A stretch of DNA of 64,000 nucleotides from Pyrinomonadaceae bacterium (GTDB lineage Bacteria; Acidobacteriota; Blastocatellia; Pyrinomonadales; Pyrinomonadaceae). Position 1 is the stretch's first letter; the number at the start of each line of letters is the position of its first letter. Positions 45,704-58,059 of this stretch are shown piece by piece. The notes under the pieces were generated by a model that saw only the letters and a program-made list of their open reading frames with translations, was not told the DNA's origin and made no database searches. A program made the translations under genes and the position numbers. The DNA lies in NCBI GenBank assembly GCA_041492185.1, contig JBGPWL010000010.1, positions 10,117 through 74,116 on the forward strand. The letters run 5' to 3'.

Positions 45704-46870
45704 ATGAACTTCAAAAAGCTCGTCATCCCCATGGCTCTAACGATCGCGCTGGCAATTGCTTTCGCCTGCCGGAAAAACAAGACAACCAACGCCCCAGCTA
45801 ACGCAACTGCTACTCCCGAAGCGTCACGTCAGCCCGAAGTCACCGCAGTTCCGGGAACTTATTTCAAAGGCTCGATCGGTACCTCAACCGATCTACAAAT
45901 GAAACTCGTTCGCGATGGCGAGAAACTGACAGGCAGCTACTTCTACCGAAAAGTCGGCGCGAAAATCGATCTCAAAGGAACCATCGACAAAGAAGGCAAC
46001 GTGACGCTTGAAGAGTTTGGCGCCGGTGGCAAACAGACCGGCGTCTTCAAAGGTCTTTGGAAAACTGACAACGAAGACGGACGCGCCAGCATCGCCGGTA
46101 ACTGGTCAAAGCCCGGCGGAGAAAGTAAGACGGCGTTCTCGCTGCACGAGGAACCAATTAGTTTCACCGGCGCGACGGAGATCGTGGCAAAGCAGATCAA
46201 GGAAGCAAACAAGAAGCTGAATTACACGATCGATGTCGAGTATCCGGAAGTGACCGGAGCGACCGATAATCGCTTCGCGAAGTTCAATCAGGAAGCGAAG
46301 GACCTGGTCACGAAACAGGTCGCCGCATTTAAAAAAGCGCAGGCCGACGCGGCGAAGTTTGCGGCCCAAGCGAAGTCGCCACCGGAGACGCCGACCCTGT
46401 CGAGCATGGCGAGCGATCTCAGTGGCGGTTACACGATCGCCATCGCGAATGACAATCTGATTAGCGTTCAATACGACCTTGGTGGCTATTCCGCCGGCGC
46501 AGCGCATAACAATTCAAGCTCATACGCGCTCAACTACGACGTGAAAGCGGACAAGGTGCTGAAGCTCGCTGAAATTTTCAAGCCCGACGCGAAATACCTG
46601 CAAGCAATCTCGGCTTACTGCATCAGCGATCTGAAAAAGCAGTCGAAGAAAAACGGGAACTCCCTGCCGGACGACATGATTCAGGTGGGCGCGGCGCCGA
46701 AGGTTCAGAATTACAAAAGTTGGACGGTGAGCAAAAAAGGTTTGGCGATAACTTTTGACGCGTACCAGGTTGGGCCTTACGTCGCCGGGCCGCAAAGCGT
46801 ACTCATCCCTTACGCGGCGCTAAAGGATCTGATTAAGCCCGACGGTCCGATTGGCGCTTTCGCGAAATAA
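45704..46870 (+). CDS. lipoprotein with DUF3298/DUF4163-like domain
   Basis: ORF 45665.. trimmed to ATG 45704; lipobox ...AIAFAC; ...YPEVTGATDNRFAKFNQEAK... resembles the RsiV/PdaC-type domain. Confidence 0.6.
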   Translation: MNFKKLVIPMALTIALAIAFACRKNKTTNAPANATATPEASRQPEVTAVPGTYFKGSIGTSTDLQMKLVRDGEKLTGSYFYRKVGAKIDLKGTIDKEGNVTLEEFGAGGKQTGVFKGLWKTDNEDGRASIAGNWSKPGGESKTAFSLHEEPISFTGATEIVAKQIKEANKKLNYTIDVEYPEVTGATDNRFAKFNQEAKDLVTKQVAAFKKAQADAAKFAAQAKSPPETPTLSSMASDLSGGYTIAIANDNLISVQYDLGGYSAGAAHNNSSSYALNYDVKADKVLKLAEIFKPDAKYLQAISAYCISDLKKQSKKNGNSLPDDMIQVGAAPKVQNYKSWTVSKKGLAITFDAYQVGPYVAGPQSVLIPYAALKDLIKPDGPIGAFAK

Positions 46871-46893
46871 GGTTGCAGGGCGACAGGCGTTTC

Positions 46894-46962
46894 GGAGTTC
46901 GACCTTTAGGTTGCTGGTTGGAGAGTCGAAAACCAAGCTAAAGCTTGAACTCTCAGCGCCTG
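46894..46962. repeat. REP-like hairpin element, copy B
   Basis: gagttcgacctttaggttgctgg ... ccaagctaaagcttgaactc. Confidence 0.6.
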
Positions 46963-46981
46963 TAAACGCAACGCTTGCTTT

Positions 46982-47200
46982 ATGAATAAGCTGGTGGGAA
47001 TAAGTGTAGTTGTCGGCGGCGCTTGTCTGATTCTCGTCGGGCTGTTGATCTATTTAGGCGGCTTTAATTGGTTTGGCCGCTTGCCTGGGGACATCCGCTA
47101 CGAAAGCGCGCGCACGCAAGTTTACGTTCCCATCGTCTCGATGCTTTTGGTATCGCTGGCGCTAAGTCTGATCTTCTATTTGATTCGGCGGTTCTTCTAA
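46982..47200 (+). CDS. DUF2905 small membrane protein
   Basis: 72 aa; ...FGRLPGDIRYE...VYVPIVSMLLVSL... hallmark of DUF2905. Confidence 0.8.
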   Translation: MNKLVGISVVVGGACLILVGLLIYLGGFNWFGRLPGDIRYESARTQVYVPIVSMLLVSLALSLIFYLIRRFF

Positions 47201-47222
47201 GCTCACACGACTTCCGGCGCTC
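47197..47222 (+). repeat. 26-nt direct repeat, left copy (island boundary candidate)
   Basis: ctaagctcacacgacttccggcgctc; 24/26 identical to 56788..56813; overlaps the DUF2905 stop codon. Confidence 0.65.
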
Positions 47223-47310
47223 AAATCGCCGGGATGCTCCTTAACAGCAGCGCCAATACCGCGATCTGATTCAATTGTTTCTACGTCGGCAGAGCTTTCT
47301 TTGTATTCGC

Positions 47311-47460
47311 TTATGCCATGCGCCGGCGATTGAAAAGATTTATCACCAGAATCACGAGCGCAACTACGAGCAACAAGTGAATCAGGTTCGTGGTGACAAA
47401 GCCGCCAAGAAACCCAAGCATCCACAGCACCAACAACACTACTAGAATTGTCCACAACAT
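47311..47460 (-). CDS. lmo0937-family small membrane protein (49 aa; below the ORF-track cutoff)
   Basis: Hand translation MLWTILVVLLVLWMLGFLGGFVTTNLIHLLLVVALVILVINLFNRRRMA*; AGGAG 8 nt upstream of the ATG. Confidence 0.65.
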   Translation of the reverse strand: MLWTILVVLLVLWMLGFLGGFVTTNLIHLLLVVALVILVINLFNRRRMA

Positions 47461-47543
47461 GATCGTCTCTCCTTAATCAAACTCCATCTGACCTTCTGAA
47501 TCTCCTTGAGACCCTTGTGTAAAGCTAGTGTGGGCTCCGGCCG

Positions 47544-47564
47544 CTGGGGCCGTCTGTGCGCTGG
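47544..47564. promoter_or_regulatory. Crp-box 1 (tctgtgcgctggagcacatat), upstream of crp paralog 1
   Basis: TGTG-N8-CACA palindrome; centre about 144 nt upstream of ATG 47698; overlaps a perfect 14-bp palindrome AGCACATATGTGCT (47556..47569) that adds a third half-site. Confidence 0.6.
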
Positions 47565-47697
47565 AGCACATATGTGCTAACATTTGTGTTCAGGCCATTA
47601 GCGTTGTCGTTGCCTCTGACGAAAACTCTTTACATCGCGGAAGAGTCCGAAATCCGTTCTGGCTTTTTCAGCGGCGGCGGCGGCATGGAGGGTTCAC

Positions 47698-48411
47698 ATG
47701 TCTGTCTCAATAAACCCTGTTCCCCCAAGGGGAAACCGCTTGCTCGGGAAACTTCCGGACGAGGAGTATGAACGCCTGCTGCCAAAACTTCAGGAAGTCT
47801 CTTTTTCCCTCGGTGAAGTTGTATATGAATTCGGCGGACATTTGGATTATGTCTTTTTCCCTACAACAGCAATCGTCTCTCTGCTCTACACCATGGAAAA
47901 CGGCACGAGCGCCGAAATGGGCTTGACGGGTAACGATGGTGTGGTGGGGATTGCCCTCTTCATGGGCGGAGGCACCATGCCCAACCGTGCCGTCGTGCAG
48001 AGTGCCGGCAGGGCCCTGAGGATGAAGGCAAAGGTGCTGCAAGATGAATTCGCGATGGGCGGCAAATTCCAACACTGGCTGCTGCGCTACACGCAAGCAC
48101 TCATTACCCAAATCTCACAGACAGCCGTTTGCAACCGGCTGCACTCGGTTGAAGAGCAACTTTGCCGCTGGCTGTTGTTAAGCCACGACCGGGTTCCGTC
48201 GGACGAGTTGATCATGACGCAGGAACTGATCGCCGATATGTTGGGTGTCCGCCGCGAAGGCGTGACCGTGGCCGCCGGTCGCTTGCAAGATGTTGGAGCG
48301 ATTAGCTACGTCCGCGGCCACATCAAGATTCTCGACCGCCAAAAATTGGAAGAAACCGTCTGCGAATGTTACCGAGTTGTCAAAAACGAGTTTGACCGCT
48401 TGCTCGGATAG
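47698..48411 (+). CDS. Crp/Fnr family transcriptional regulator (paralog 1)
   Basis: 237 aa; cNMP-binding-type beta-roll plus C-terminal HTH (ELIADMLGVRREGVTVAAGRLQ). Confidence 0.85.
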   Translation: MSVSINPVPPRGNRLLGKLPDEEYERLLPKLQEVSFSLGEVVYEFGGHLDYVFFPTTAIVSLLYTMENGTSAEMGLTGNDGVVGIALFMGGGTMPNRAVVQSAGRALRMKAKVLQDEFAMGGKFQHWLLRYTQALITQISQTAVCNRLHSVEEQLCRWLLLSHDRVPSDELIMTQELIADMLGVRREGVTVAAGRLQDVGAISYVRGHIKILDRQKLEETVCECYRVVKNEFDRLLG

Positions 48412-48418
48412 ATACCAA

Positions 48419-48513
48419 GGCAAAAGTAAAAAGGTAAAAGGCAAAAAGGAAGGGCGAATCAATCAACGGGCCGTTGGTTGTCGCCCTTCTCACTTTTCCT
48501 TTCTACTTTTGCC
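48419..48513 (+). terminator. long imperfect hairpin just after the crp paralog 1 stop
   Basis: Arms ggcaaaagta...gaagggcga / tcgcccttc...tacttttgcc built from A-rich heptamer-like units; inner hairpin CAACGG-GC-CGTTG. Confidence 0.45.
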
Positions 48514-48702
48514 CTGCTTCCAATGTGCGATAACGCAAGGACACTCGCTCTTTCGAGTGGTATAGTCTCAGGACGGCTGATGATGAACCGTTGCGTTATC
48601 AAGAGCGTGGGGCCGCGGAAGGATTAACAGCGAAACAACAGGGTGTGGTTGCTGCATTTTGCGTTTCGGCTAGACGCCCTCTAACGCGTTAGGAAACAAC
48701 TT

Positions 48703-49188
48703 ATGAAACTAACAAACATGGCTGCACTCTTCGCTCTGATAGTTATGATCTGTAGCGCGCCAATCGTCGCACAACGCACGACCCGACCTTCCGCGGCGGT
48801 TCGATCTCCTGAAGTCGTGCTTAGAGAATTCTACAAGTGGTATATCCATGCCGGGAGCCATGACATAGATCCACTCAAGACCGACAAGGCTACTTTTAGG
48901 AAGTACGTCAGCGCGAGGTTCATTCGTGAAATTGAAAGAAACGAAAGACTGCCCGAAGGTGAAGGTTTCGATGCAGATTATTTTCTGCAAACGCAAGACC
49001 CGCTTCCCTCTTCCGATGCAAACAATGAAGCGGAGTGGCTAAAGAGTATCTCGGTATCGAGAGTCGCAGTCAAAGGAACAACAGCCACGGCGATTGTCAC
49101 TTTTTTCGCTGGGTATCCGAAGGTGAAGGTGAGCCTCATACAAGAAGGTGGCGTCTGGAAGATTAATCACGTAGCGGACGCACACTGA
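48703..49188 (+). CDS. secreted DUF3828-like protein
   Basis: 161 aa; signal peptide; ...LREFYKWYI...FDADYFLQTQD... pattern of DUF3828. Confidence 0.6.
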   Translation: MKLTNMAALFALIVMICSAPIVAQRTTRPSAAVRSPEVVLREFYKWYIHAGSHDIDPLKTDKATFRKYVSARFIREIERNERLPEGEGFDADYFLQTQDPLPSSDANNEAEWLKSISVSRVAVKGTTATAIVTFFAGYPKVKVSLIQEGGVWKINHVADAH

Positions 49189-49289
49189 TACGAATCCTTG
49201 CTGGTCAATGAGTCCTGATAAATTCAGCTATGCGGCAGATCATTTCACTGCGGGTTGGTGAATTGCATAATTCGGAAAGGAAAAGATTC

Positions 49290-49757
49290 ATGAAGAATGT
49301 GCTTATGTTCGTTATGCCTTTAGTATTCCTTTGCACACCTTCACTGGCATCACCTTCGCAGAACCAGGACACCACCGTTATTGATAAGTTCATCTCGAAG
49401 CAGGCCACTCAGGAAGGCGGCGACGAGGACGCAGAAGCGAGAAAGGTGGCGGAGGGGGACCTCAACCGCGATGGCACCTCCGACCTCGCAGTCTTATACA
49501 CGATTGAGGGTCAGAACGGGACAAACAACTATGTGCAATACCTGGCCGTATTCGTTCGAGTCAAAGGGCGCCTTCTTCCAGTTACACACGCCGCAGTTGG
49601 CGGCAAGTCTTATCGGGCGGTTGAGCTGGAGTCAATCAGCAACAGCGTAATCCTGTTAAAGACACTTAAGTATGCAGCGAAGGACGCGGCGTGCTGCCCG
49701 AGCAAGAAAGGGACGGCTCGATACGCGCTGGTCAACCGCAGGCTCAAGGAGCTATAG
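49290..49757 (+). CDS. secreted hypothetical protein
   Basis: ORF 49230.. trimmed to ATG 49290; signal peptide MKNVLMFVMPLVFLCTPSLA; DLNRDGTSDLAV (FG-GAP-like) segment. Confidence 0.6.
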   Translation: MKNVLMFVMPLVFLCTPSLASPSQNQDTTVIDKFISKQATQEGGDEDAEARKVAEGDLNRDGTSDLAVLYTIEGQNGTNNYVQYLAVFVRVKGRLLPVTHAAVGGKSYRAVELESISNSVILLKTLKYAAKDAACCPSKKGTARYALVNRRLKEL

Positions 49758-49954
49758 GGTCCGTTCCCCAGCCACAACGAGTCATGAGACCGGGAATCCT
49801 GTCAATCGAGCGCAGAGGAACGACGGTGACGATGGCGTCATCGCGCGCAGGAAGTTGGCGACCATCGTTCTGGTGAGAAGAAGCAACACGATTTATCCGT
49901 ATCATCGACAAGATGCCAAAAGCATCAGGCGACGGTAGTGGAATTCTTACTGAC

Positions 49955-50671
49955 CTACTCAGGCAGAAAGCTATCGTATTCCTCTTTGGTGATTCTGTAG
50001 CATTGACAGACGATCGCCTCCAGCTTTGCCGGCTGGAGGATCGTAAGGATGCCGCGACTGTAGCTAATCAATTTCTCACGTTGTAGATTGCCAGCAGCTT
50101 TGTTTACGCCTTCGCGTCGCACGCCCAGCATGCTGGACAAGAATTCCTGGGTGAGGCGAAACTTCTCCGCTTCCATCCCGTCGCGGGTCGTCAGCAGCCA
50201 CCGTGCCAAGCGGGCATCTATTGAGTGGAAGCGGTTGCACACAGCTGCTTGGGCTGTTTGCGTCAATCGTGAGTGCGTGTATCGTCGCAGCAGGCGCGGC
50301 AACCCTCCTCCGTTTTCGCATTCCTTTCGTAAGGCCGTCGCCTTCATTCTCAGGGCCACACCCGCACCTTGCACGACGGCGCGATTACGTGATGTCTTTA
50401 CGCCCATGAATACGGGGAGGCCGACCATACCCTCGCGGCCCACCATGCCAACCTCGAGATTGGTTCCCTCGCCTTCAGTTGCGAGCAGAGACACAACGCC
50501 ACTCGTCGGGAAATAGACGTGCCGGATGATGTCGCCCGGTTCGTATACGGCTGACCCAAAAGTCAGGTTTGTCAGCTCCAACTTAGTGAGCAGATGCTGA
50601 TATTCCTTTCTGGGCAGTTTGGCGAGAAGCCGATTGGAAACCGGCACCGATCGATTTGTGGCTGGAAGCAT
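49955..50671 (-). CDS. Crp/Fnr family transcriptional regulator (paralog 2)
   Basis: ORF 49955..50743 trimmed to ATG 50671 so the N-terminus (MLPATNRSVPVSNRLLAKLP) aligns with paralog 1 (MSVSINPVPPRGNRLLGKLP); HTH MLGVRREGVNKAAGNLQ. Confidence 0.85.
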   Translation of the reverse strand: MLPATNRSVPVSNRLLAKLPRKEYQHLLTKLELTNLTFGSAVYEPGDIIRHVYFPTSGVVSLLATEGEGTNLEVGMVGREGMVGLPVFMGVKTSRNRAVVQGAGVALRMKATALRKECENGGGLPRLLRRYTHSRLTQTAQAAVCNRFHSIDARLARWLLTTRDGMEAEKFRLTQEFLSSMLGVRREGVNKAAGNLQREKLISYSRGILTILQPAKLEAIVCQCYRITKEEYDSFLPE

Positions 50672-50811
50672 CGAGGGTTTTCCTTCTTCCGGTTGCTTGG
50701 CGCCAAGACAACAAACGGCACAAGAATGGGGTTGCCAGCCCAATCCAAGTGTCTAAAGATGATTTGTCTAACGAACGCTGCGGTATGTATACGACCCAAA
50801 GGCCTGGGCCG

Positions 50812-50832
50812 TATGTGCGCTAGCGCGCATAT
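50812..50832. promoter_or_regulatory. Crp-box 2 (tatgtgcgctagcgcgcatat), upstream of crp paralog 2
   Basis: Centre about 151 nt upstream of ATG 50671 (minus strand); followed by the GCGCATATGCGC palindrome, giving a third half-site as in box 1. Confidence 0.6.
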
Positions 50833-50903
50833 GCGCACTTTTCACAAACCAAACAAGGGCGGTCTCTTTGGTCTGGTTGGAACCTACATCAACGGGTGTG
50901 TTG

Positions 50904-51170
50904 TTACCTCAGGCCGAAACCCCTCCGGCGAAAGAGCGCGTGATAGACGATCAAAAACACTACGGCGCCCGTCACGGCGACGAGCAGGCTATAGAGATTC
51001 AGACCTGTCACACCAGTTGCTCCAAACAGATTGAATAGAAAGCCGCCGACGATCGCACCGACAACTCCTAAGAGGACGTCGCGAACCAGGCCTTCACCCG
51101 TCTTGTTAACAATCTTGCTTCCGATGTAACCAGCGACCAGACCGAGCACGATCCAGGCGACAAAAGACAT
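50904..51170 (-). CDS. GlsB/YeaQ/YmgE family stress-response membrane protein
   Basis: ORF trimmed to ATG 51170; MSFVAWIVLGLVAGYIGSKIV...LLGVVGAIVGGFLF typical of transglycosylase-associated (YeaQ) family. Confidence 0.8.
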   Translation of the reverse strand: MSFVAWIVLGLVAGYIGSKIVNKTGEGLVRDVLLGVVGAIVGGFLFNLFGATGVTGLNLYSLLVAVTGAVVFLIVYHALFRRRGFGLR

Positions 51171-51384
51171 CGCTGAACTTTCCTGCCGGTTGGATATCAA
51201 CATACCGAACTGTGTTACCTCGATGATTGACATTTCACTTCTCCTTCTTTTTTGAGTTCTCTAGTCGTCTCTTGGAAAACATCAGACGGCACAAGAAGGA
51301 GGTTGCTGGCCTGATCCGCAGTGTCGATAGGTGATTTGTCTAAAGAACGACTGAAGCGAAGGATACAACTCAAAAGAACGGCGG

Positions 51385-51405
51385 TCTGTGCGCTAGAACA
51401 CATAT
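51385..51405. promoter_or_regulatory. Crp-box 3 (tctgtgcgctagaacacatat)
   Basis: In the divergent region between the glsB-like gene (minus) and the Gly/Arg/His-rich gene (plus). Confidence 0.55.
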
Positions 51406-51499
51406 AGAGGAAGTGAGGAAAGAAACGGGAGCATCCTCTCAGCCAGGCAGGCGGTCGTACTCGTCTTAAGCGTTTCGCTCGCGATTTATCCTCGCCCCA

Positions 51500-51520
51500 A
51501 TATGTGTGTTAGCGCACATA
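51500..51520. promoter_or_regulatory. Crp-box 4 (atatgtgtgttagcgcacata)
   Basis: Centre 54 nt upstream of ATG 51564; TAGAGT -10-like hexamer starts ~31 nt downstream of the centre (class II-like geometry). Confidence 0.6.
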
Positions 51521-51563
51521 CACCTCAAGCCGCAGGGATTAGAGTCAGCGCCAAGGAGTGAAT

Positions 51564-51842
51564 ATGAAACGAAAAACAATGCAGCTTTTGATGGGGACAG
51601 CGATGGCAATATCCTTAGCGTGTGCCTCGCTGGATGTGATCGCTCAACAGAATGTCAATTCCAGTAAAGGGCAGATGAAGGAAGGCGGCAGAGAGGTTGG
51701 CAGAGCCGGTCGAGGCGTGGGGCGACATGTGAAGCATGGCCGGATAGTGCGCGGTGGCAAACACTTTGGACGACACATGGGGCGTGCCGGTAGGCACTTC
51801 GGCCGCGGGACCAAGCATGCCGTCAAGCATGCAATATCCTAA
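51564..51842 (+). CDS. small secreted Gly/Arg/His-rich basic protein
   Basis: ATG 51564 with AAGGAG upstream; signal peptide, then repeated G-R-x-x-G-R-H units. Confidence 0.6.
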   Translation: MKRKTMQLLMGTAMAISLACASLDVIAQQNVNSSKGQMKEGGREVGRAGRGVGRHVKHGRIVRGGKHFGRHMGRAGRHFGRGTKHAVKHAIS

Positions 51843-52025
51843 GACGAACTTCCTTTCATAACTGAGTGCTGTTACATCTGTGTTGATTGCTCTCAGAGAC
51901 CACTCTTGCGTCAGAAATCGGCAATGGCAGTCGACCGCCTGTGCGCACATAAAGCAGAAATGAAGCAGTACGTTTAATAACGCTTCTTTGACGACCCTGG
52001 GAACCCACAGCCCGTCTTGTTTCTA

Positions 52026-52046
52026 TATGTGCGCAAACGCACATAC
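52026..52046. promoter_or_regulatory. Crp-box 5 (tatgtgcgcaaacgcacatac)
   Basis: 73 nt upstream of a 25-codon ORF (52109..52186) that has an AGGAGG Shine-Dalgarno. Confidence 0.55.
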
Positions 52047-52289
52047 ACGACACTTTAATCGGTCTAAGGTAGCGCCCATTAGTGACATCCCGTAATCAGG
52101 AGGCGACCATGCCAAAGCCTGACGTAGATGGCGTGGTAGCAAGGATCACGCAATTCGTTTTTCCTGCGGAGCGCGTCGCTGCTTAGTCAATCCGCGCTGG
52201 ATGTGGAAGTCAACAACTGTCCGCTTCCAACACCTCCCCTCCCGCGCCAACTGCGCAACGAAGATGCTCAAAAACATTTAGAATGATCT

Positions 52290-52310
52290 ATATGTGTGTT
52301 AGAGCACATA
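52290..52310. promoter_or_regulatory. Crp-box 6 (atatgtgtgttagagcacata)
   Basis: About 228 nt upstream of ATG 52528 (R/D/N-rich protein). Confidence 0.55.
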
Positions 52311-52527
52311 CAAACGCTCGCGGGTAGTTTATGTTGCCGTACTGGCAATTTACTGTGAAAGCATACCAGGCAGTCTCGGATTCAGAGATACATTTGATTG
52401 CGCTCTGATGCTGGCGGCGAACGCGTCGGGCAGAAGAGACACAGGTGATTGAAGCGCGGGTTTCAGCGAGATTCAAACCCACCCTTCGCAAGGTCGAGTT
52501 GCATGTACCTGCAACAAGGAGTTGGTT

Positions 52528-53298
52528 ATGAAAAGAAATCAATGGCTAGGCAGAATCGGGATCGCCGCGCTGGCGTTTTTGCTGCTGCTTGGCGCGGGAA
52601 TCGTCTTGAGCACGACAGCTCGGGCTCAAAATCAAGATGATCGTGATGCCCAAAGCCGTCGGGATCAAAACAACCGTGATCGCAACGATCAATATCGCCG
52701 CGACCGCAACTGGGATCAGTACGGCAACTACGGCGGCTCTGTCGAGTTGCGCGAAACCGCTCTGAACGCTGGCTACAACGAAGGTATCAGGGAAGGCAGC
52801 AATGATCGCCAGAACGGGAGGCACTCTAACTATCGAGACTCTAGTGCCTACCGGAACGCCACGAAAGACTACCGCTCACGTCTCGGCGACCGCGAGTTGT
52901 ACCGCCGATACTTCCGTGACGCATTCGAGAGCGGATACAACGCCGACGGTTATGACCAGGACAGTCGCGATCGAGACAACCGTGATCGTGATCGAAACAA
53001 CCGTGACCGCAACAACAACGGCGACCGAAATCGCCGCGGCCGCAACTGGGACGGCTACTCCAACTACGGCGGCTCCTTCGAGCTTCGCCAAACGGCACTG
53101 AACGCGGGCTACAACGAAGGCATCAAGGAAGGTCGCAAGGACCGCAATCGGCGCAACCGCTCTGATTACCGTGACAAGGGCGCCTACCAGAAAGCCACGC
53201 AAGACTACAGCTCAAGGCTCGGCGACCGCGAGCTATACCGACGTTACTACCAAGAGGCCTACCCTAATGGTTATGACGCCGGCATCAATGGTTACTAG
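52528..53298 (+). CDS. secreted Arg/Asp/Asn-rich protein with internal duplication
   Basis: ATG 52528 with AAGGAG 5 nt upstream; signal/TM; two ~95-aa units (NWD.Y.NYGGS.ELR.TALNAGYNEGI.EG...YR...AY..AT.DY.SRLGDRELYRRY). Confidence 0.7.
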   Translation: MKRNQWLGRIGIAALAFLLLLGAGIVLSTTARAQNQDDRDAQSRRDQNNRDRNDQYRRDRNWDQYGNYGGSVELRETALNAGYNEGIREGSNDRQNGRHSNYRDSSAYRNATKDYRSRLGDRELYRRYFRDAFESGYNADGYDQDSRDRDNRDRDRNNRDRNNNGDRNRRGRNWDGYSNYGGSFELRQTALNAGYNEGIKEGRKDRNRRNRSDYRDKGAYQKATQDYSSRLGDRELYRRYYQEAYPNGYDAGINGY

Positions 53299-53392
53299 AA
53301 GTTTCTTGAAGGCCCTCACCTCTTTTCAAGTCTTCGTTTTCGAATCCAGCTTGCGCTTCGCGGCGCATGCATTCAAAGGAAGTCAGTAAGAA

Positions 53393-53620
53393 GTGAACAC
53401 AAAGACATCAGTCAGACTCATCAAAAAAGGGGAACGCAAAGGGCGAAAGATCCGAGCTAAGGTCCAACATCGAACTGGCCCAAAACAGTGGTCCACAGCA
53501 GTTCGCTCGTGGGTCGTTGAGTCTCAAGAACGCGATCGCAGCGAATCGCTCCCAGCTTTCGACAGTTTGTTCGAGGATGCACTGACGCCGCCGGAACGCG
53601 CAGATGGAAGCGTTGTCTAG
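53393..53620 (+). CDS. small basic hypothetical protein
   Basis: 75-aa ORF from GTG; no family recognised. Confidence 0.4.
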   Translation: MNTKTSVRLIKKGERKGRKIRAKVQHRTGPKQWSTAVRSWVVESQERDRSESLPAFDSLFEDALTPPERADGSVV

Positions 53621-53681
53621 CGATCAACGAACGGCAACGCTCAAACGATTGGAGAGGGCTACACTCGCCCAAAGGAGAAAT

Positions 53682-53876
53682 ATGACACCAGCTAAACCAG
53701 GAGTGGTCAAAGACGAGCTGACAACCCATGACCGAACGCAGGCGGCGATAGAGGCTTATCGGGCCAAGTCCGATGAACGAACTAGCCCGGGACCAAATCC
53801 GGTTCGTGAGAGGCGGTATCTCGACGTGGATGGAGTTCTCGCGCGCTCGTCGTTGCCAGAAGCGTTAAGGCTATAG
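53682..53876 (+). CDS. small hypothetical protein
   Basis: ORF 53604.. trimmed to ATG 53682, which has AAGGAG 5 nt upstream. Confidence 0.45.
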   Translation: MTPAKPGVVKDELTTHDRTQAAIEAYRAKSDERTSPGPNPVRERRYLDVDGVLARSSLPEALRL

Positions 53877-54026
53877 TCACATATTGGACAAGTACTACCT
53901 TCCCGCCAGAGTTGGCGTGAAGCCCCCGGCATGGTGGTGTCCTGATTTATTTCTCTGTGCGATCTCCGCGTCCCCTGTGTCTTGTGGTGAGTGGTTATGG
54001 ATGATCCCGGAGTTCAGATTCGCTGA

Positions 54027-54425
54027 TCAGTGTCCGACCGGGATCCGTTGAAAGCGTGTCTTGCCTTCCACATCTTCCCATGAGATGTCGAGCACATAAG
54101 GACAAGCCTTGCCTGTGATGATCTTGAGTCGTTCCAACTGATCGTGATCGATCTCGCTCGGTCTGCCATTGATCCAGGTTCGGTGGGCCAGGACTGCTCG
54201 CTCTTTGGGTAGGATGGCTTTTACCGCGTCGAATCGAATGTGAGCTTGTGACGGCCCTCCGCCGAAAGTTTCTTCATCTTTCAGGAAGATAGTTAGAATC
54301 TCCATCGACTTAAGGGTTTGGTCACCGGTGTTCGTCAACTCTAAGAGAACCTTCGGTCCGGTATCGATTAATCTGAAGCTGAGAGGTTTGGCTGTATTGC
54401 TATTGTTGCTCATAGTCTTTGTCAC
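54027..54425 (-). CDS. hypothetical protein co-directional with the receiver-domain gene
   Basis: 132-aa ORF 45 nt downstream of the receiver gene; no family recognised. Confidence 0.55.
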   Translation of the reverse strand: MTKTMSNNSNTAKPLSFRLIDTGPKVLLELTNTGDQTLKSMEILTIFLKDEETFGGGPSQAHIRFDAVKAILPKERAVLAHRTWINGRPSEIDHDQLERLKIITGKACPYVLDISWEDVEGKTRFQRIPVGH

Positions 54426-54439
54426 GCTTGTCCGAAACC

Positions 54440-54510
54440 ACCTGCGGTAGCGGGTGGGTAATTGTCATCACTACGCGGCCAGCGGAGCAAAACCACCCGC
54501 TACCGCAGGT
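54440..54510 (-). repeat. perfect 18-bp inverted repeat straddling the receiver-gene stop codon
   Basis: acctgcggtagcgggtgg (54440..54457) and ccacccgctaccgcaggt (54493..54510), 35-nt spacer. Confidence 0.6.
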
Positions 54511-54902
54511 AGTTCCGTCTTTAGCAGCAGGCGAGTGATAAGATTTCTCAACTGGTTGAAGTTGTCGGGGCGAGTGACATGTACATTTCGACCGATGGCG
54601 ACTTCATCACCTTCGCCGACCTCTGCAACGCAAAAGAGCACAACTGGCACACTCTCTCCCAGGCCCGCGCGTTCGCGGATACGGCACGCGGTAACTATTA
54701 TGTCGGCTAGTATGCCGGGTAAACTCACGAGAATCAGATCGGGACGCCTGCGTAGTGCGCTCGTGATTGCGCTGGGTTCATCTCTCATTGCCTCCACACG
54801 GTAACCGTCCACTTTGAGCAATTTCTCAATGCCGTCGCGAGTCTCCTCGACATCCTCCACTACCAGGATGATCAGGGCCGTGTCATTTTCTATGTTCATC
54901 AA
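54471..54902 (-). CDS. stand-alone receiver (REC) domain protein lacking the phospho-acceptor Asp
   Basis: ILVVEDVEETR (beta1 acidic pair) is present, but the beta3 position reads PDLILVSLPG (Ser where Asp is expected); K-P-F position reads RPDNF. Confidence 0.65.
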   Translation of the reverse strand: MMNIENDTALIILVVEDVEETRDGIEKLLKVDGYRVEAMRDEPSAITSALRRRPDLILVSLPGILADIIVTACRIRERAGLGESVPVVLFCVAEVGEGDEVAIGRNVHVTRPDNFNQLRNLITRLLLKTELPAVAGGFAPLAA

Positions 54903-54995
54903 ACGCTTTCTTGTTCGCTTACGGCCAGGTTTTGTTTATCTTCGAGTACATGACCACTAGCGAACCTTTAACAATAGCGACAACTAAGCGGCTTG

Positions 54996-55016
54996 TCCGT
55001 GCGCCAGCGCACATAT
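54996..55016. promoter_or_regulatory. Crp-box 7 (tccgtgcgccagcgcacatat)
   Basis: In the divergent region between the receiver-domain gene (about 104 nt to its ATG) and the Met-rich protein gene. Confidence 0.55.
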
Positions 55017-55036
55017 TGCCTAACTTTTCGGCGTGA

Positions 55037-55114
55037 GATCGATAAATCCCAATCATAAGCGGCCTAGCGCACAGACGGCGCCGCGTGCTTAGCCTAACCT
55101 TGTGTTCTGTCAGC
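55037..55114 (+). repeat. 78-nt direct repeat, copy A
   Basis: 68/78 identical, ungapped, to 56253..56330 (hand count). Confidence 0.7.
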
Positions 55115-55224
55115 AAAGGAATCCGAGGCTAAGACCACTAAAATAGTCAAAGATTCGTTAACTTTTTCGAGGATCTGAAGGCGGAATTCCGCTCTGAAAA
55201 ATGAAGAGGGAGAAAGGTGAGAAT

Positions 55225-55830
55225 ATGAAAATAAACACACGCGCTCTGTTTTTAGCTATAGCCATTATGCTGATCGTATCAATTCCGTCCGTCGCATGGG
55301 CGCAACACAAGCACGGTGGACAGAAAAAGGCGGGCATGTCGGGCATGAAGATGGACATGCCAATGATGATGATGAAATCGCCGCATCACAAGTTGATGAT
55401 GGCCTACATGAAGAGCATGTCTACGTTCGCTACAACACTTCGTGATCAGGCAATGAAGCCAGAAGCCATGGACGTTGAAGTTGCGCGCGCAACTGTCGCG
55501 GAGCTGAGACACAATCTCGATGCGATGGAAGCTCTCCACCAAAAACACATGCAGTCGATGAGCGCAGAGATGCAATCAAAGATGAAGACGATGATGGAGA
55601 AGATGGATAAGAACGGCGCGAAGCTAAAGGATCAGGTGACCGCGCTCGAGACCGATGTGCAAGCCGATAAGCCAGACTCTGCGCAAGTGACGGCACATGC
55701 CAACGCTCTGCTAAAGCATCTCGGAATGATGTCGAAGATGCATGGTGGCAGCAAAGCAGGGAAGAAGAAGATGGCGATGAAGAAGGGTATGAAGATGGAT
55801 CCCAAGATGGACATGAAGAAGAAGATGTAA
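55225..55830 (+). CDS. secreted Met/His/Lys-rich protein
   Basis: ORF 55201.. trimmed to ATG 55225; signal peptide; MKMDMPMMMMKSPHHKLMMAYMKSM and C-terminal KKKMAMKKGMKMDPKMDMKKKM. Confidence 0.7.
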   Translation: MKINTRALFLAIAIMLIVSIPSVAWAQHKHGGQKKAGMSGMKMDMPMMMMKSPHHKLMMAYMKSMSTFATTLRDQAMKPEAMDVEVARATVAELRHNLDAMEALHQKHMQSMSAEMQSKMKTMMEKMDKNGAKLKDQVTALETDVQADKPDSAQVTAHANALLKHLGMMSKMHGGSKAGKKKMAMKKGMKMDPKMDMKKKM

Positions 55831-55943
55831 TCGTTCCCGTGTAGTTGTTGGCTGTTGTTCTGGAAATAGGTTTGGTAATGCACCCGCTGTGTCGTGATCT
55901 AATGCGCGCGGCGGAAGCAATTCCAAATAGGAGGTAAGAATTC

Positions 55944-56198
55944 ATGCCTGAGACAAATCGAACCCGGGTGGCACTGGGTGCAATCATCGTGGTGGTGCTC
56001 ATAGTTTCGCTCCTCTCTTGGAGCGGGATGATGGGCGGTTTGGGTTGGACGAATATGAGCGGCGGGATGATGGGCGGATGGGGCTCGAATGCGAACCCCG
56101 GCAGGTCTGTGCTGACGATCGGCGTTTGGGTACTTATCGTCGTCGGCATCGGAGGGATTATCCTTTGGGCCATTCGTAAGCCCGGCGTACACCGATGA
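55944..56198 (+). CDS. small two-TM membrane protein with Gly/Met-rich loop
   Basis: 84 aa; AGGAGG 8 nt upstream; loop SGMMGGLGWTNMSGGMMGGWG between two TM helices. Confidence 0.65.
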   Translation: MPETNRTRVALGAIIVVVLIVSLLSWSGMMGGLGWTNMSGGMMGGWGSNANPGRSVLTIGVWVLIVVGIGGIILWAIRKPGVHR

Positions 56199-56252
56199 TG
56201 CAAGGTGTGCGATCGTCTTCATGCCCCATGTCTCCTGTGAATTCCGGTACGC

Positions 56253-56330
56253 GATCGATTAATCCAACTCATAAGCGGCCTAGTGCACAGACGGCTCCGC
56301 AGGCTTAGCCTAACCTTCTGTTCTGGCAGG
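56253..56330 (+). repeat. 78-nt direct repeat, copy B
   Basis: Ends 10 nt before ATG 56340. Confidence 0.7.
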
Positions 56331-56339
56331 ACCGACCTT

Positions 56340-56684
56340 ATGAAACTTGTCTTTGTAATCATTGTCTTAGAGAACCTGGTCATTGCTTTGATATTGGCGG
56401 CGGTTTTTGCGCATTCCTGGAGGCGGAAATTCAACTTGCAGCGCCCATTCTCATTGATTGATGCCGGCGACACTCCATCCATCCACTTGGCGACACCGGC
56501 CCTGTTTGATCCGGTACGTTGGACACGACTAAATCCATGGCTGCTCGAAGGCCAACCTGATGACCGGACACCGATGATCGGTTCTGATGGTGAGATCAGC
56601 GGATCAGCATCGGCGCGCCGGTCGTCAGCGAGGCGGTTTCATCAGATTAACTACAAAGCATGGTCAAAAGAGCGGCACAACTGA
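56340..56684 (+). CDS. hypothetical membrane-anchored protein
   Basis: ORF 56283.. trimmed to ATG 56340 because the upstream codons lie in a 78-nt non-coding repeat; N-terminal TM MKLVFVIIVLENLVIALILAAVF. Confidence 0.5.
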   Translation: MKLVFVIIVLENLVIALILAAVFAHSWRRKFNLQRPFSLIDAGDTPSIHLATPALFDPVRWTRLNPWLLEGQPDDRTPMIGSDGEISGSASARRSSARRFHQINYKAWSKERHN

Positions 56685-56787
56685 GAAGTAATCGAAGCGG
56701 TGAAGAAACGGTAGGGTAATCATCAGCATGACTAGTGGCGGATAAGATTAGGTCTTACGCGAGTCTGCGTTTCGATGGGCGGTCCTG

Positions 56788-56813
56788 CTAAGCTCACATC
56801 ACTTCCGGCGCTC
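56788..56813 (+). repeat. 26-nt direct repeat, right copy (island boundary candidate)
   Basis: ctaagctcacatcacttccggcgctc; overlaps the stop codon and last 6 codons of the MFS gene (minus strand). Confidence 0.65.
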
Positions 56814-58059
56814 CACCATCCGAATATTCTCCCGCGTGCGCGCGCGCGAAATAAACGCCGAGCAGAAAAGCTGCCAGCATGATCCCCGCCGCGGTCCAGA
56901 ACGTTGCGAAGATCGAATGGTCGCTCATGTTATGAAAAGCTCCGTCAAAACCTTTGGCAGCAACCGCGCTGTAGATCAAGATCGCCTGCACTGACGGTCC
57001 AACGGCCCGCGCCAAACTCGCCACCGATTGCGTGACGCCCAGCACCACGCCCTGTTCGGCTTCGCTCACGCTTTTTGATGCGAGGCTCGTCAACGATGGC
57101 GTTGCCAGCGAGTTGCCCACCGCGAACGCGCCGCCGACCGCAAGCAGCGTCAGCAATCCAGTGTGCGCTCCGGTAAAAGGAATCAGGAACAGACTCAGAG
57201 AAAACAGCGACGCGCCGATTAGCACCAGCGGCAATTCGCCAAATCGTCTCACCAATTTTCCGATCAGCCCGCCCTGAATCATCGCGCCAATTATTCCGAC
57301 GTACGCAAACAGGTAACCCGTGTGCGCCGCGTCATAGCCAAACCGGAACATCGTGAAGAGGGAGAACGTGGTTGTCATTATCGAGAACGCGACGATGAAT
57401 AAAAAGTAGATCGTGAGCACAAATCCGAGTTTCGGCTGTTTGAGAGATCTGACAACCTCTTTCCAGTCACGACCACCGGCGGCAGAAACGCGCGCGGGAT
57501 GATCCGGCGTCACGGTTTCGGGCAGAGTGAAATAAAGCAGAATGGCATTTGCAAACGCCAGACCGGCAGCAAAAAAGAACGGCACGCCGATGCCCCAATG
57601 ACTGAGCACGCCGCCAATCGCCGGACCAAAAACGAAGCCGAGACCAAACGCGGCGCCTACCAAACCCATGCCCTTCGCGCGATCCGCTTTTGTAGTCGAG
57701 TCGGCGATGTAGGCTTGCGCGGTTGAAATGTTGCCGCCGGTGATACCGTCCAGGATGCGGCCGACAAAGAGCATCCACAGCGTCGTCGCAAAGCCGAGAA
57801 TCAGAAACGAGATGCCCGTGCCGATGATGCTAACGAGCAGCACCGGACGCCGCCCATGTTTATCTGAAAGCCTTCCCAGGATGGGAGCGAAGATCAACTG
57901 CATGACGGAGTAGGAAGCAAAGAGCAATCCTACGTCGCGCGGCGTGGCATTGAACCTCGTGCCTTCGACGTAGAACGGCAGCACGGGCATGACGATGCCA
58001 AACCCGACCAGGTCGATAAAGATCGTGATGAAGATGACCAGTAGCGGCGAACGCTTCAT
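56794..58059 (-). CDS. MFS transporter (TetA/drug-efflux-like, 12 TM)
   Basis: 421 aa; motif A-like GRLSDKHGRRPVLL; 12 predicted hydrophobic segments. Confidence 0.85.
   Translation of the reverse strand: MKRSPLLVIFITIFIDLVGFGIVMPVLPFYVEGTRFNATPRDVGLLFASYSVMQLIFAPILGRLSDKHGRRPVLLVSIIGTGISFLILGFATTLWMLFVGRILDGITGGNISTAQAYIADSTTKADRAKGMGLVGAAFGLGFVFGPAIGGVLSHWGIGVPFFFAAGLAFANAILLYFTLPETVTPDHPARVSAAGGRDWKEVVRSLKQPKLGFVLTIYFLFIVAFSIMTTTFSLFTMFRFGYDAAHTGYLFAYVGIIGAMIQGGLIGKLVRRFGELPLVLIGASLFSLSLFLIPFTGAHTGLLTLLAVGGAFAVGNSLATPSLTSLASKSVSEAEQGVVLGVTQSVASLARAVGPSVQAILIYSAVAAKGFDGAFHNMSDHSIFATFWTAAGIMLAAFLLGVYFARAHAGEYSDGGAPEVM

Follow-up and report, generated by a model that had tools for sequence, protein, structure and literature searches.

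A directional 22-bp palindrome and two paralogous Crp/Fnr-type proteins: a predicted class II regulon in a Pyrinomonadaceae bacterium

An island of about 9 kb in a 64,000-nucleotide stretch of DNA from a Pyrinomonadaceae bacterium, an uncultured soil acidobacterium (assembly GCA_041492185.1, contig JBGPWL010000010.1, positions 10,117 to 74,116; the whole stretch is called the window below, and it defines our scope for this genome) carries nine to ten boxes built on a 22-bp palindrome, ATATGTGCGCTAGCGCACATAT, together with the genes of two paralogous Crp/Fnr-type regulators, Crp1 and Crp2. The boxes are not random, they have an orientation and a set spacing to a -10-like hexamer, they are conserved in other genomes, and they accompany the regulator and covary with it. 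Judging from the sequences, the palindrome is probably the operator of a Crp1/Crp2-subfamily dimer and would act as a class II activator site. The first-pass annotation of this DNA had proposed a compact, autoregulated regulon of the two adjacent Crp/Fnr paralogues, and that proposal, with autoregulation in part, is supported by the -10 spacing, the conservation of orthologous promoters, the recovery of the system by motif alone and the covariation of box and regulator.

Seven copies of a 21-bp palindrome with a TGTG-N8-CACA core had been described. A search with the 21-mer TATGTGCGCTAGCGCACATAT, allowing up to three mismatches, returned all seven (47553, 50811/12, 51385, 51500/01, 52025/26, 52290 and 54996), whereas 0.00 matches were expected (none in 100 dinucleotide-preserving shuffles). 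The first site had been placed at 47544, about 9 nt away from its actual start at 47552/47553; the other starts were correct within 1 nt. The real repeat unit is not the 21-mer but the even-length 22-bp palindrome, which begins at 47552, 50811, 51384, 51500, 52025, 52290 and 54995. Five of these seven full boxes have a perfect core, against 0.6 expected, and the other two are imperfect, with CGCA in the 50811 box and CGTG in the 54995 box. When the 64 kb were scanned with a weight matrix made from the seven, they scored 28-34 bits and the runner-up, at 55055, scored 14.4 bits, thus the window contains no eighth full copy, as had been claimed. What had escaped notice were two variant boxes, ATAAGCGGCCTAG(C/T)GCACAGAC, at 55055 and 56271, and a weak candidate tenth box at 48521 (12.7 bits), so that the total for the island is nine to ten. 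The boxes span 47.5-56.3 kb, the remaining 55 kb being free of copies in the weight-matrix scan, and every one is intergenic on the map of open reading frames (ORFs) of the window, which agrees with the earlier statement.

The boxes are directional. If they are written as 5'-ATATGTG...GCACA(G/T)AC-3', a gene start lies downstream in that direction every time in the window, and in seven of the nine a TAnnnT hexamer starts exactly 18 nt past the oriented 22-mer. The -10-like hexamers that had been reported after three boxes, at about 25-31 nt from the box centre, are therefore real, but the rule is stricter and holds for more boxes. On the minus strand, box 3 (51384..51405), facing glsB, is followed by TATCCT (51365-51360), and box 7 (54995..55016), upstream of the gene for an Asp-less receiver and probably also of a 132-aa ORF, by TATTGT (54976-54971). 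On the plus strand, TAGAGT (51540-51545) follows box 4 (51500..51521), upstream of the gene for a Gly/Arg/His-rich secreted peptide; TAAGGT (52065-52070) follows box 5 (52025..52046), upstream of a receiver-gene remnant; and TATGTT (52330-52335) follows box 6 (52290..52311), from which a leader of about 185 nt leads to the gene of an Arg/Asp/Asn-rich (R/D/N-rich) protein. The two variant boxes, also on the plus strand, share the hexamer TAACCT: it lies at 55095-55100 after box 8 (ATAAGCGGCCTAGCGCACAGAC, 55055..55076), which precedes the gene of a Met-rich protein and possibly ORF 55944-56198, and at 56311-56316 after box 9 (ATAAGCGGCCTAGTGCACAGAC, 56271..56292), upstream of ORF 56340-56684. 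In the remaining two boxes the hexamer comes one nucleotide later. These are box 2 (50811..50832, minus strand), which faces crp2 and has TATACA at 50791-50786, and box 1 (47552..47573; ATATGTGCTCCAGCGCACAGAC on the minus strand), common to the divergent DUF5670 gene and crp1, which has CACACT at 47532-47527 on the DUF5670 side that it faces, 19 nt on; the orthologous promoters have TAGTCT, CACACT or CATTCT at this place. The weak box CAATGTGCGATAACGCAAGGAC (48521..48542, plus strand; 12.7 bits) has the 18-nt spacing to TATAGT (48561-48566), a hexamer that a sigma-70 scan flagged too, and we count it as a tentative member.

The same spacing was found well beyond the window. Across all the loci that we gathered from other genomes (numbered with an L below) 213 boxes scored at least 18 bits, 211 of them with sufficient flanks, and TAnnnT stood at offset 18 in 84 of the 211 (47/114 in Acidobacteriota and 37/97 in other phyla). 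Other offsets mostly had 0-3 TAnnnT; the exceptions were the neighbouring offset 19 (10 and 4), offset 13 with a small peak (10 and 5) and offset 24 (5), and on the opposite side of these 211 boxes there was no TAnnnT peak. Gene-proxy ORFs take up 83% of the bases but contain only 33% of the 213 boxes (binomial p = 3e-57). If the TAnnnT hexamer is the -10 element (-12 to -7), the box centre comes to lie at -41.5, where class II CRP/FNR promoters and NtcA promoters also have their sites. The -35 position is occupied by the last five bases of the box and the next base (CAGACg or CAGACc); CAGACg agrees with TTGACA at GAC only, in three of six positions, with a 17-nt spacer to the -10. With respect to the predicted transcription start, these promoters thus have a site near -41.5, a weak overlapping -35 and a fixed distance to the -10, as do class II activator-dependent promoters.

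The mechanism that we propose follows this layout. The Arg-Glu pair at the start of the recognition helix (LGVRREGV) would read GTG in each half-site. In nine promoters of the 9-kb island the centre of the box lies some 41.5 bp before the predicted start, and the box overlaps a poor -35 (CAGACg) and precedes a TAnnnT -10 by 18 nt. With the box at this position, the bound dimer would most likely recruit RNA polymerase in the class II manner, for which CRP at galP1, FNR, and NtcA at GTA-N8-TAC promoters are the models. The predicted targets are genes for small stress-type proteins of the membrane or secreted ones (DUF5670, GlsB, the Gly/Arg/His-rich peptide, the R/D/N-rich protein and the Met-rich proteins) and those for the Asp-less receiver and Crp2; which paralogue would serve which box we leave as a joint assignment to the two. 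The gene crp2 is probably activated, because its box has class II geometry. The crp1 side of box 1 is different: TAACAT (47578-47583, plus strand) lies just 4 nt past the box, and the 4-nt spacing to TAnnnT (TAACAT, TATGCT, TATGTT or TATTCT) recurs in seven of the eight box-bearing upstream regions of crp1-type genes. This puts the box at about -27.5 with respect to the putative -10 of crp1, which suggests autorepression. The circuit may therefore have two tiers, with crp1 autorepressed and crp2 and the regulon activated. The arrangement of boxes at the two paralogues, which had been described as similar, would on this evidence be dissimilar, box 1 being oriented to the DUF5670 gene and the crp2 box being of class II.

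Several lines of evidence connect the box to the regulators. In eight of nine related loci a box stands upstream of the crp1-type gene at the same place, and in related genomes boxes also precede crp2-type genes and the genes of Asp-less receivers, DUF5670 proteins, R/D/N-rich proteins and desaturases; the set of box and genes, which the first-pass annotation had proposed to look for in relatives, does recur there. The crp2-type orthologues have a box, 18 nt, then TAyTyA, or in two cases TCTGAT/TCTCAT. We also scanned one genome per species, 185,579 species in all, with the pattern TATGTGYGYNNNCGCACRKAC and no other information. At least 119 stretches matched; among the 119 listed 43 were from Acidobacteriota, and many of the others came from Beta- and Gammaproteobacteria and several from Treponemataceae. 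At least 15 of the non-acidobacterial stretches had a strong Crp1-subfamily homologue (190-410 bits) within at most 8 kb around the match, for example in Roseateles, Variovorax, Methyloglobulus, Sideroxydans, Pseudidiomarina, Planctobacterium and Halioglobus, and TAnnnT stood at +18 in 28 of the 80 non-acidobacterial matches listed. The same box design is present in genomes of Treponemataceae and Rectinemataceae.

A search of Burkholderia and Pseudomonas plasmids with the acidobacterial weight matrix and with TGTG-N8-CACA found almost nothing. Reading of the intergenic DNA in those plasmids showed that the boxes there are of the GTAC type, and this is why we tested whether the recognition residue and the box covary. 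The plasmid homologues of Burkholderia, Ralstonia and Cupriavidus read LGVRRSGV, with Ser in place of Glu. GTACG-N4-CGTAC(C/A)GAC sites adjoin the two Burkholderia genes; the strict pattern was not found in the Ralstonia and Cupriavidus loci. In a sample of 91 loci picked by protein only (80 metagenome loci and other protein-selected loci), the loci with Glu-type regulators only had 13 GTG..CAC boxes and one GTA..TAC box, whereas those with Ser-type regulators only had no GTG..CAC box and 11 GTA..TAC boxes (Fisher p = 2.7e-6). The few loci of the Ala and Pro types had GTA boxes too. In the loci of pure Glu or Ser type 24 of the 29 boxes counted were symmetric. The covarying residue is at the position of E181 in CRP, which sets the preference for base pair 7; in NtcA, a reader of GTA, this position is occupied by Val. 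As a separate, anecdotal observation, hybrid GTG/GTA boxes were seen in some loci with a Glu and a Val paralogue (L135, L202).

Some of our observations speak against an activator site read by the two paralogues. Box 1 has no good -10 at the canonical offset in the window, and a palindrome over the -35 region suits a repressor operator equally well. The distal half of the variant boxes, AAGCGGCC, misfits a GTG that is read by Arg-Glu, and near the variant boxes we found no regulator with an altered helix, all nearby regulators of the subfamily keeping RREGV. The covariation stems from a small number of independent lineages, since most Ser-type regulators belong to one clade, the Burkholderiaceae. 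With these points in mind we considered whether the same regulators could be repressors, which block RNA polymerase over the -35 until a signal releases them. We find this unlikely. It would agree with the box covering the -35, with the partial -35 at its proximal end (CAGACg, sharing the GAC of TTGACA, at a 17-nt spacer) and with the crp1 box near -27.5, a typical repressing position. However, the positions of repressor operators are usually variable, whereas here the spacing between box and -10 is exact to the nucleotide across phyla, as for stereospecific activation, and a -35 with three matches in six is as poor as in activator-dependent promoters. Those Crp/Fnr proteins that have been characterised and bind with their centre at -41.5 are activators.

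Explanations that do without the two regulators have far lower probability. One is that an alternative sigma factor recognises the conserved proximal half and TAnnnT as its -35 and -10, without a dimeric regulator; we see little chance for this, although conservation is stronger in the proximal half, GCGCACAGAC, than in the distal one and the -10 spacing is fixed. The distal half is conserved as well, as the reverse complement, the change of GTG to GTA affects both halves jointly in the symmetric boxes counted above, as for a dimer, and there is no sigma-factor gene within the island. Similarly improbable is another, unlinked transcription factor that binds the box and has the Crp paralogues merely as members of its regulon. 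The misfit of the variant boxes to the Arg-Glu reading could be explained in this way, and binding of Crp to the box rests on sequence evidence, but an unlinked factor would not account for a box that covaries with the residue precisely at the CRP-E181 equivalent, nor for the presence of the regulator next to motif-only matches in several phyla. That the boxes are repeats without regulatory role, similar to a repetitive extragenic palindrome (REP) or a miniature inverted-repeat transposable element (MITE), with the Crp genes nearby by coincidence, is hardly credible and has been largely refuted. The palindrome is GC-rich and has many intergenic copies, and some promoter-plus-leader segments are duplicated (88 nt at 55026/56242; about 130 nt at 50705/51276), yet such a repeat would not be expected to have a directional -10 at a fixed distance, to lie upstream of genes and not between convergent ones, to be clustered with 55 kb of the window free of copies, to occur with the same design near the same regulator subfamily in unrelated phyla, or to covary in sequence with the recognition residue of the regulator.

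The two regulators both have 237 amino acids and are 49% identical; crp1 lies at 47698..48411 on the plus strand and crp2 at 49955..50668 on the minus strand. The domain layout is that of the Crp/Fnr family, with an N-terminal cNMP-binding-like beta-barrel (PF00027, cNMP_binding; 30.9 bits in Crp1, 33.9 bits in Crp2) and a C-terminal winged helix-turn-helix (PF13545, HTH_Crp_2; 55.5 and 57.3 bits), all scores exceeding the cut-offs. Crp1 is 100% identical to a protein in assembly GCA_041496485.1, and among the 120 best homologues listed close ones are 86-92% identical, some of them from named Pyrinomonadaceae. The subfamily comprises 3,722 clusters at 50% identity (E <= 1e-30). The AlphaFold2 model of Crp1 has a mean pLDDT (predicted local distance difference test) of 94.4 and a pTM (predicted template modelling score) of 0.89, and Foldseek matched it to M. 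tuberculosis CRP and GlxR with a TM-score of 0.75 (E 1e-13, 19% identity). A phmmer search of the PDB with Crp1 gave no match, and it took a profile to find GlxR, M. tuberculosis CRP and NtcA there (E 1e-16 to 1e-12); the NCBIfam scan assigned no family to Crp1.

The GVRREGV sequence, which had been noticed in both paralogues, aligns as was then stated: in the profile alignment the Arg-Glu pair of LGVRREGV lines up with R180/E181 of CRP. In that protein R180 and E181 read DNA, and E72, R82/S83 and T127/S128 contact cyclic AMP (cAMP) (PMC11253593). The cAMP contacts are replaced in our alignment (E72 by I/L, R82 by P/R, S83 by N, T127 by S/A, S128 by Q), and because the pocket is not conserved, cAMP or cGMP is unlikely as effector; the signal is probably another one. 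In an alignment of 43 diverse members C145, H149, C222 and C224 (Crp1 numbering) are invariant, and R185 and R186, which lie in the LGVRREGV helix, are near-invariant. C145 and H149 are at the end of the long central helix, and C222 and C224 open a C-terminal helix for which CRP has no counterpart. The recognition helix and the C-terminal CxCY motif (CECY in Crp1) are maintained from Acidobacteriota to Proteobacteria, and 108 of 123 helix-carrying representatives have CxC[YFW]. Cys145, His149, Cys222 and Cys224 may form a metal or redox site, in which case they would be the candidate sensing site of the regulator.

Homologues 61-64% identical to Crp1 are found on plasmids or genomic islands of well-studied Proteobacteria, namely P. 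aeruginosa pKLC102 (L130, 93782-94501), a B. multivorans plasmid (L131) and pRsT78 of R. solanacearum (L132). They have CsbD, DUF3309, glycine-zipper, desaturase and GH94/glucoamylase genes around them, which suggests a horizontally mobile stress module. Crp1-type and Crp2-type genes co-occur in other Pyrinomonadaceae (L009, L042, L059, L064, L128), and there are paralogue pairs in Proteobacteria too (L025, L083, L087, L113, L135). A 2.5-kb contig labelled Nitrospirales (JBBRRL010000480, L123) has the layout DUF5670-box-crp1 with a Crp1 homologue of 410 bits; it is probably a wrongly binned Pyrinomonadaceae contig.

Turning to the genes next to the boxes, the descriptions given earlier for GlsB, the two regulators, the Asp-less receiver and the duplicated R/D/N-rich protein were all correct. 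The DUF5670 gene (47311..47460, minus strand; PF18919, E 2.5e-11) codes for a small membrane protein of 49 aa, and the pairing of box and DUF5670 is repeated in L033, L042 and L123. Downstream of the weak box at 48521 are a DUF3828 gene (48703-49188, plus strand), a possible member, and after it an ORF at 49290-49757. The product of glsB (50904..51233, minus strand; box 3) is a membrane protein of the GlsB/YeaQ/YmgE type (PF04226, E 2e-11), and the Gly/Arg/His-rich peptide (51564-51842, plus strand; box 4) has a signal peptide. The R/D/N-rich secreted protein is encoded at 52528-53298 on the plus strand (box 6), with an internal duplication of 260 nt; a box is paired with its homologue also in L006 and L013, and conservation of the leader extends to L013, L028 and L006. 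The Met-rich protein gene (55201-55830, plus strand) belongs to box 8, with ORF 55944-56198 (plus strand) possibly under the same box, and ORF 56340-56684 (plus strand) to box 9. RRM-domain proteins were dropped as regulon members, because in neither L005 nor L009 does a box immediately precede their genes.

The commonest pairing is that of a box with a receiver gene: we found 13 orthologous promoters with common downstream sequence, and a receiver-like gene downstream of 31 of the 213 boxes. In the window the Asp-less receiver (54471-54902, minus strand) stands under box 7, with the 132-aa ORF (54027-54425, minus strand) probably under the same box. On PF00072 it scores 26.2 bits, below the cut-off of 30.2, and it reads PDLILVSLPG, with Ser and no Asp in the phospho-acceptor position. 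An Asp-less receiver next to a box had been correctly recognised here, while box 5 has only a remnant of 25 codons (52110-52187, plus strand). This remnant matches the C-terminal 25 residues of a box-regulated canonical receiver in related genomes (L116; 44% identity, E 2e-5), and box 5 is, by this match, best described as a promoter retained by a receiver-gene remnant. A terminator-like hairpin lies at 52131-52151; the idea that the box-5 transcript is a small RNA was set aside, as the remnant explains it better.

The Pfam families most often seen among 150 downstream genes of all loci were Response_reg (18), HTH_Crp_2 (11), FA_desaturase (8) and BON (4), followed by Ice_binding and Gly-zipper_YMGG (3 each) and Cpn60, DUF2171, YtxH and DUF5670 (2 each). 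The annotated neighbourhoods of homologues in B. multivorans, R. solanacearum, Methylomagnum, Cupriavidus and P. aeruginosa pKLC102 include genes for CsbD, DUF3309, DUF3096, glycine-zipper 2TM, fatty-acid desaturase, KGG and YsnF/AvaK proteins, and for stomatin, manganese catalase, and glucoamylase or GH94. Such a gene content would fit a general, desiccation, freezing or osmotic stress response, and the label of a stress, desiccation or dormancy regulon, given to the island earlier, is likewise a suggestion drawn from the genes. A separate observation concerns the Treponemataceae and Rectinemataceae loci (L010, L085, L118, L127): in the first three of them two divergent boxes lie about 50 bp apart, and the genes to either side of them code for ice-binding-like (DUF3494) secreted proteins in one direction and for YtxH- or CsbD-type proteins in the other.

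A wider interpretation can be put forward, tentatively and as a doubtful one. The subfamily could be an unrecognised, horizontally mobile master activator of a regulon for survival without growth, under desiccation, freezing or osmotic stress, comprising hydrophilin-like small proteins, desaturases, ice-binding-like proteins, BON, CsbD, YtxH and GlsB. Sensing would be through a subfamily-specific Cys3-His metal or redox site, joining the hinge to the C-terminal extension, with no nucleotide, and paralogues of the Glu, Ser, Val or Ala type would pair as heterodimers on hybrid or variant boxes and thus create a combinatorial promoter code.

The variant boxes have relatives elsewhere. The box 9 variant is found also in the orthologous promoters of L004, L005 and L009, and a recurrent variant, ATAAGCGG(C/T)CTAGCGCACAGAC, has at least ten copies in Acidobacteriota loci (e.g. 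L004 7999, L005 6697, L006 18741, L009 9780). In the variant boxes it is always the half distal to the -10 that is changed. In the window the two variant boxes with their -10 elements are contained in an 88-nt direct repeat (55026-55113 and 56242-56329, 84% identical), the copies of which precede two unrelated genes, those of the Met-rich protein and ORF 56340. Another direct repeat, of 36 nt (32/36 identical), flanks the entire box island at 47187-47222 and 56778-56813 and has only these two copies in the 64 kb; its right copy is the 3' end of a gene (56794-58059, minus strand) for a transporter of the major facilitator superfamily. It may mark where the island ends, or be an att-like duplication; we saw no integrase.

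Some promoters share more than the box. The conserved transcribed leader of crp2 (50705..50790, minus strand) is paralogous to the glsB leader (51276-51362), the two being parts of duplicated promoter-plus-leader segments of about 130 nt at 50705 and 51276. Ten promoters, in the window and in loci that include L013, L016, L028, L043, L079, L108 and L111, share such a leader behind the box, about 70 nt long (TCGACA...GGCCAGCAACCTCCTTCTTGTGCCG), although the genes that they precede are non-homologous. It has an anti-Shine-Dalgarno stretch that is the perfect complement of the glsB ribosome-binding site, but this pairing is inconsistent across members. RNAalifold applied to the 70-nt leader of the ten promoters gave -0.94 kcal/mol and zero compensatory pairs, thus a structured riboswitch or RNA thermometer is unsupported. 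An E-value-threshold search of 46500-57500 against Rfam, leaders and box-5 transcript included, returned nothing.

Our literature searches turned up no paper that deals with the subfamily, the box or the regulon, and the parts seen of two family-wide CRP/FNR surveys (PMC3590769 and PMC12531629) gave no sign of the subfamily. What appears to be new is thus a subfamily without prior characterisation, with a candidate sensor module marked by the Cys3-His signature. Pyrinomonadaceae and other Acidobacteriota are abundant in soil and seldom cultured, and their transcriptional regulation is almost undescribed; the locus supplies a predicted pairing of regulator and operator, a rule for the promoters (box, 18 nt, TAnnnT) and a set of target gene families. 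The subfamily and the promoter design are present also in tractable Burkholderia, Ralstonia, Cupriavidus and P. aeruginosa pKLC102, where the regulators are annotated just as 'Crp/Fnr family transcriptional regulator' and the prediction can be tested directly. Many of the small proteins in the regulon, whose function is undescribed, recur in general-stress and desiccation sets, and a common regulator would give a handle on their timing. The covariation of Glu with GTG and of Ser with GTA is a naturally occurring case of the CRP recognition code.

It is instructive to compare the system with known members of the family. Crp1 and Crp2 are, by their domains and alignments, members of the Crp/Fnr superfamily that are distinct from the cAMP receptors, FNR and NtcA; we set them apart from strict CRP, FNR and NtcA because they lack the features that define each. 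FNR, a [4Fe-4S] oxygen sensor, is a Crp/Fnr class II activator, as is predicted for the regulators here, and senses through conserved cysteines, but its cysteines are N-terminal plus C122, whereas in the present signature C145/H149 belong to the hinge and C222/C224 to a C-terminal extension; residues 1-140 of Crp1 contain no Cys, and the box is not TTGAT-N4-ATCAA. SdrP of T. thermophilus and DdrI of D. radiodurans are cAMP-independent CRP-family regulators of stress genes (PMC11253593). They resemble the system predicted here in the control of stress genes by a Crp-family protein without cAMP, but they belong to another subfamily (SdrP, 2zcw, matches the profile at E 1.4e-7) without the Cys/His signature, have other targets and are confined to the Deinococcus-Thermus phylum. 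Among solved structures, GlxR of Corynebacterium and the CRP of M. tuberculosis come nearest both in the profile search (E 6e-16) and in the fold comparison (TM-score 0.75); at 19% identity, these two proteins differ in that they bind cAMP and have no C-terminal extension. E. coli CRP at class II promoters (TGTGA-N6-TCACA, -41.5) has in common with the window regulators the TGTG-N8-CACA core, Arg-Glu at R180/E181 and the position at -41.5; sequence identity is, however, only about 15-19%, the residues of the cAMP pocket are lost, R185 is replaced, and the inner half-site has CGC instead of A. The closest parallel in promoter design is cyanobacterial NtcA, a dimer of the same family. NtcA-activated promoters have GTA-N8-TAC at -41.5, a TAN3T -10 and no -35. 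Unlike NtcA, the window regulators retain Glu, have GTG..CAC boxes and carry a C-terminal extension with CxC; the NtcA family TIGR03697 scores 32.7 bits with Crp2 (its best NCBIfam match, a weak one, against a cut-off of 244.95) and does not match Crp1, the predicted regulon consists of stress proteins, not of nitrogen assimilation genes, and nothing points to a role of 2-oxoglutarate or PipX. The promoter geometry is nevertheless identical and the 14-bp GTx-N8-xAC core is shared, and the Crp1 relatives of the Ser, Ala and Val types use the same GTA-N8-TAC boxes as NtcA.

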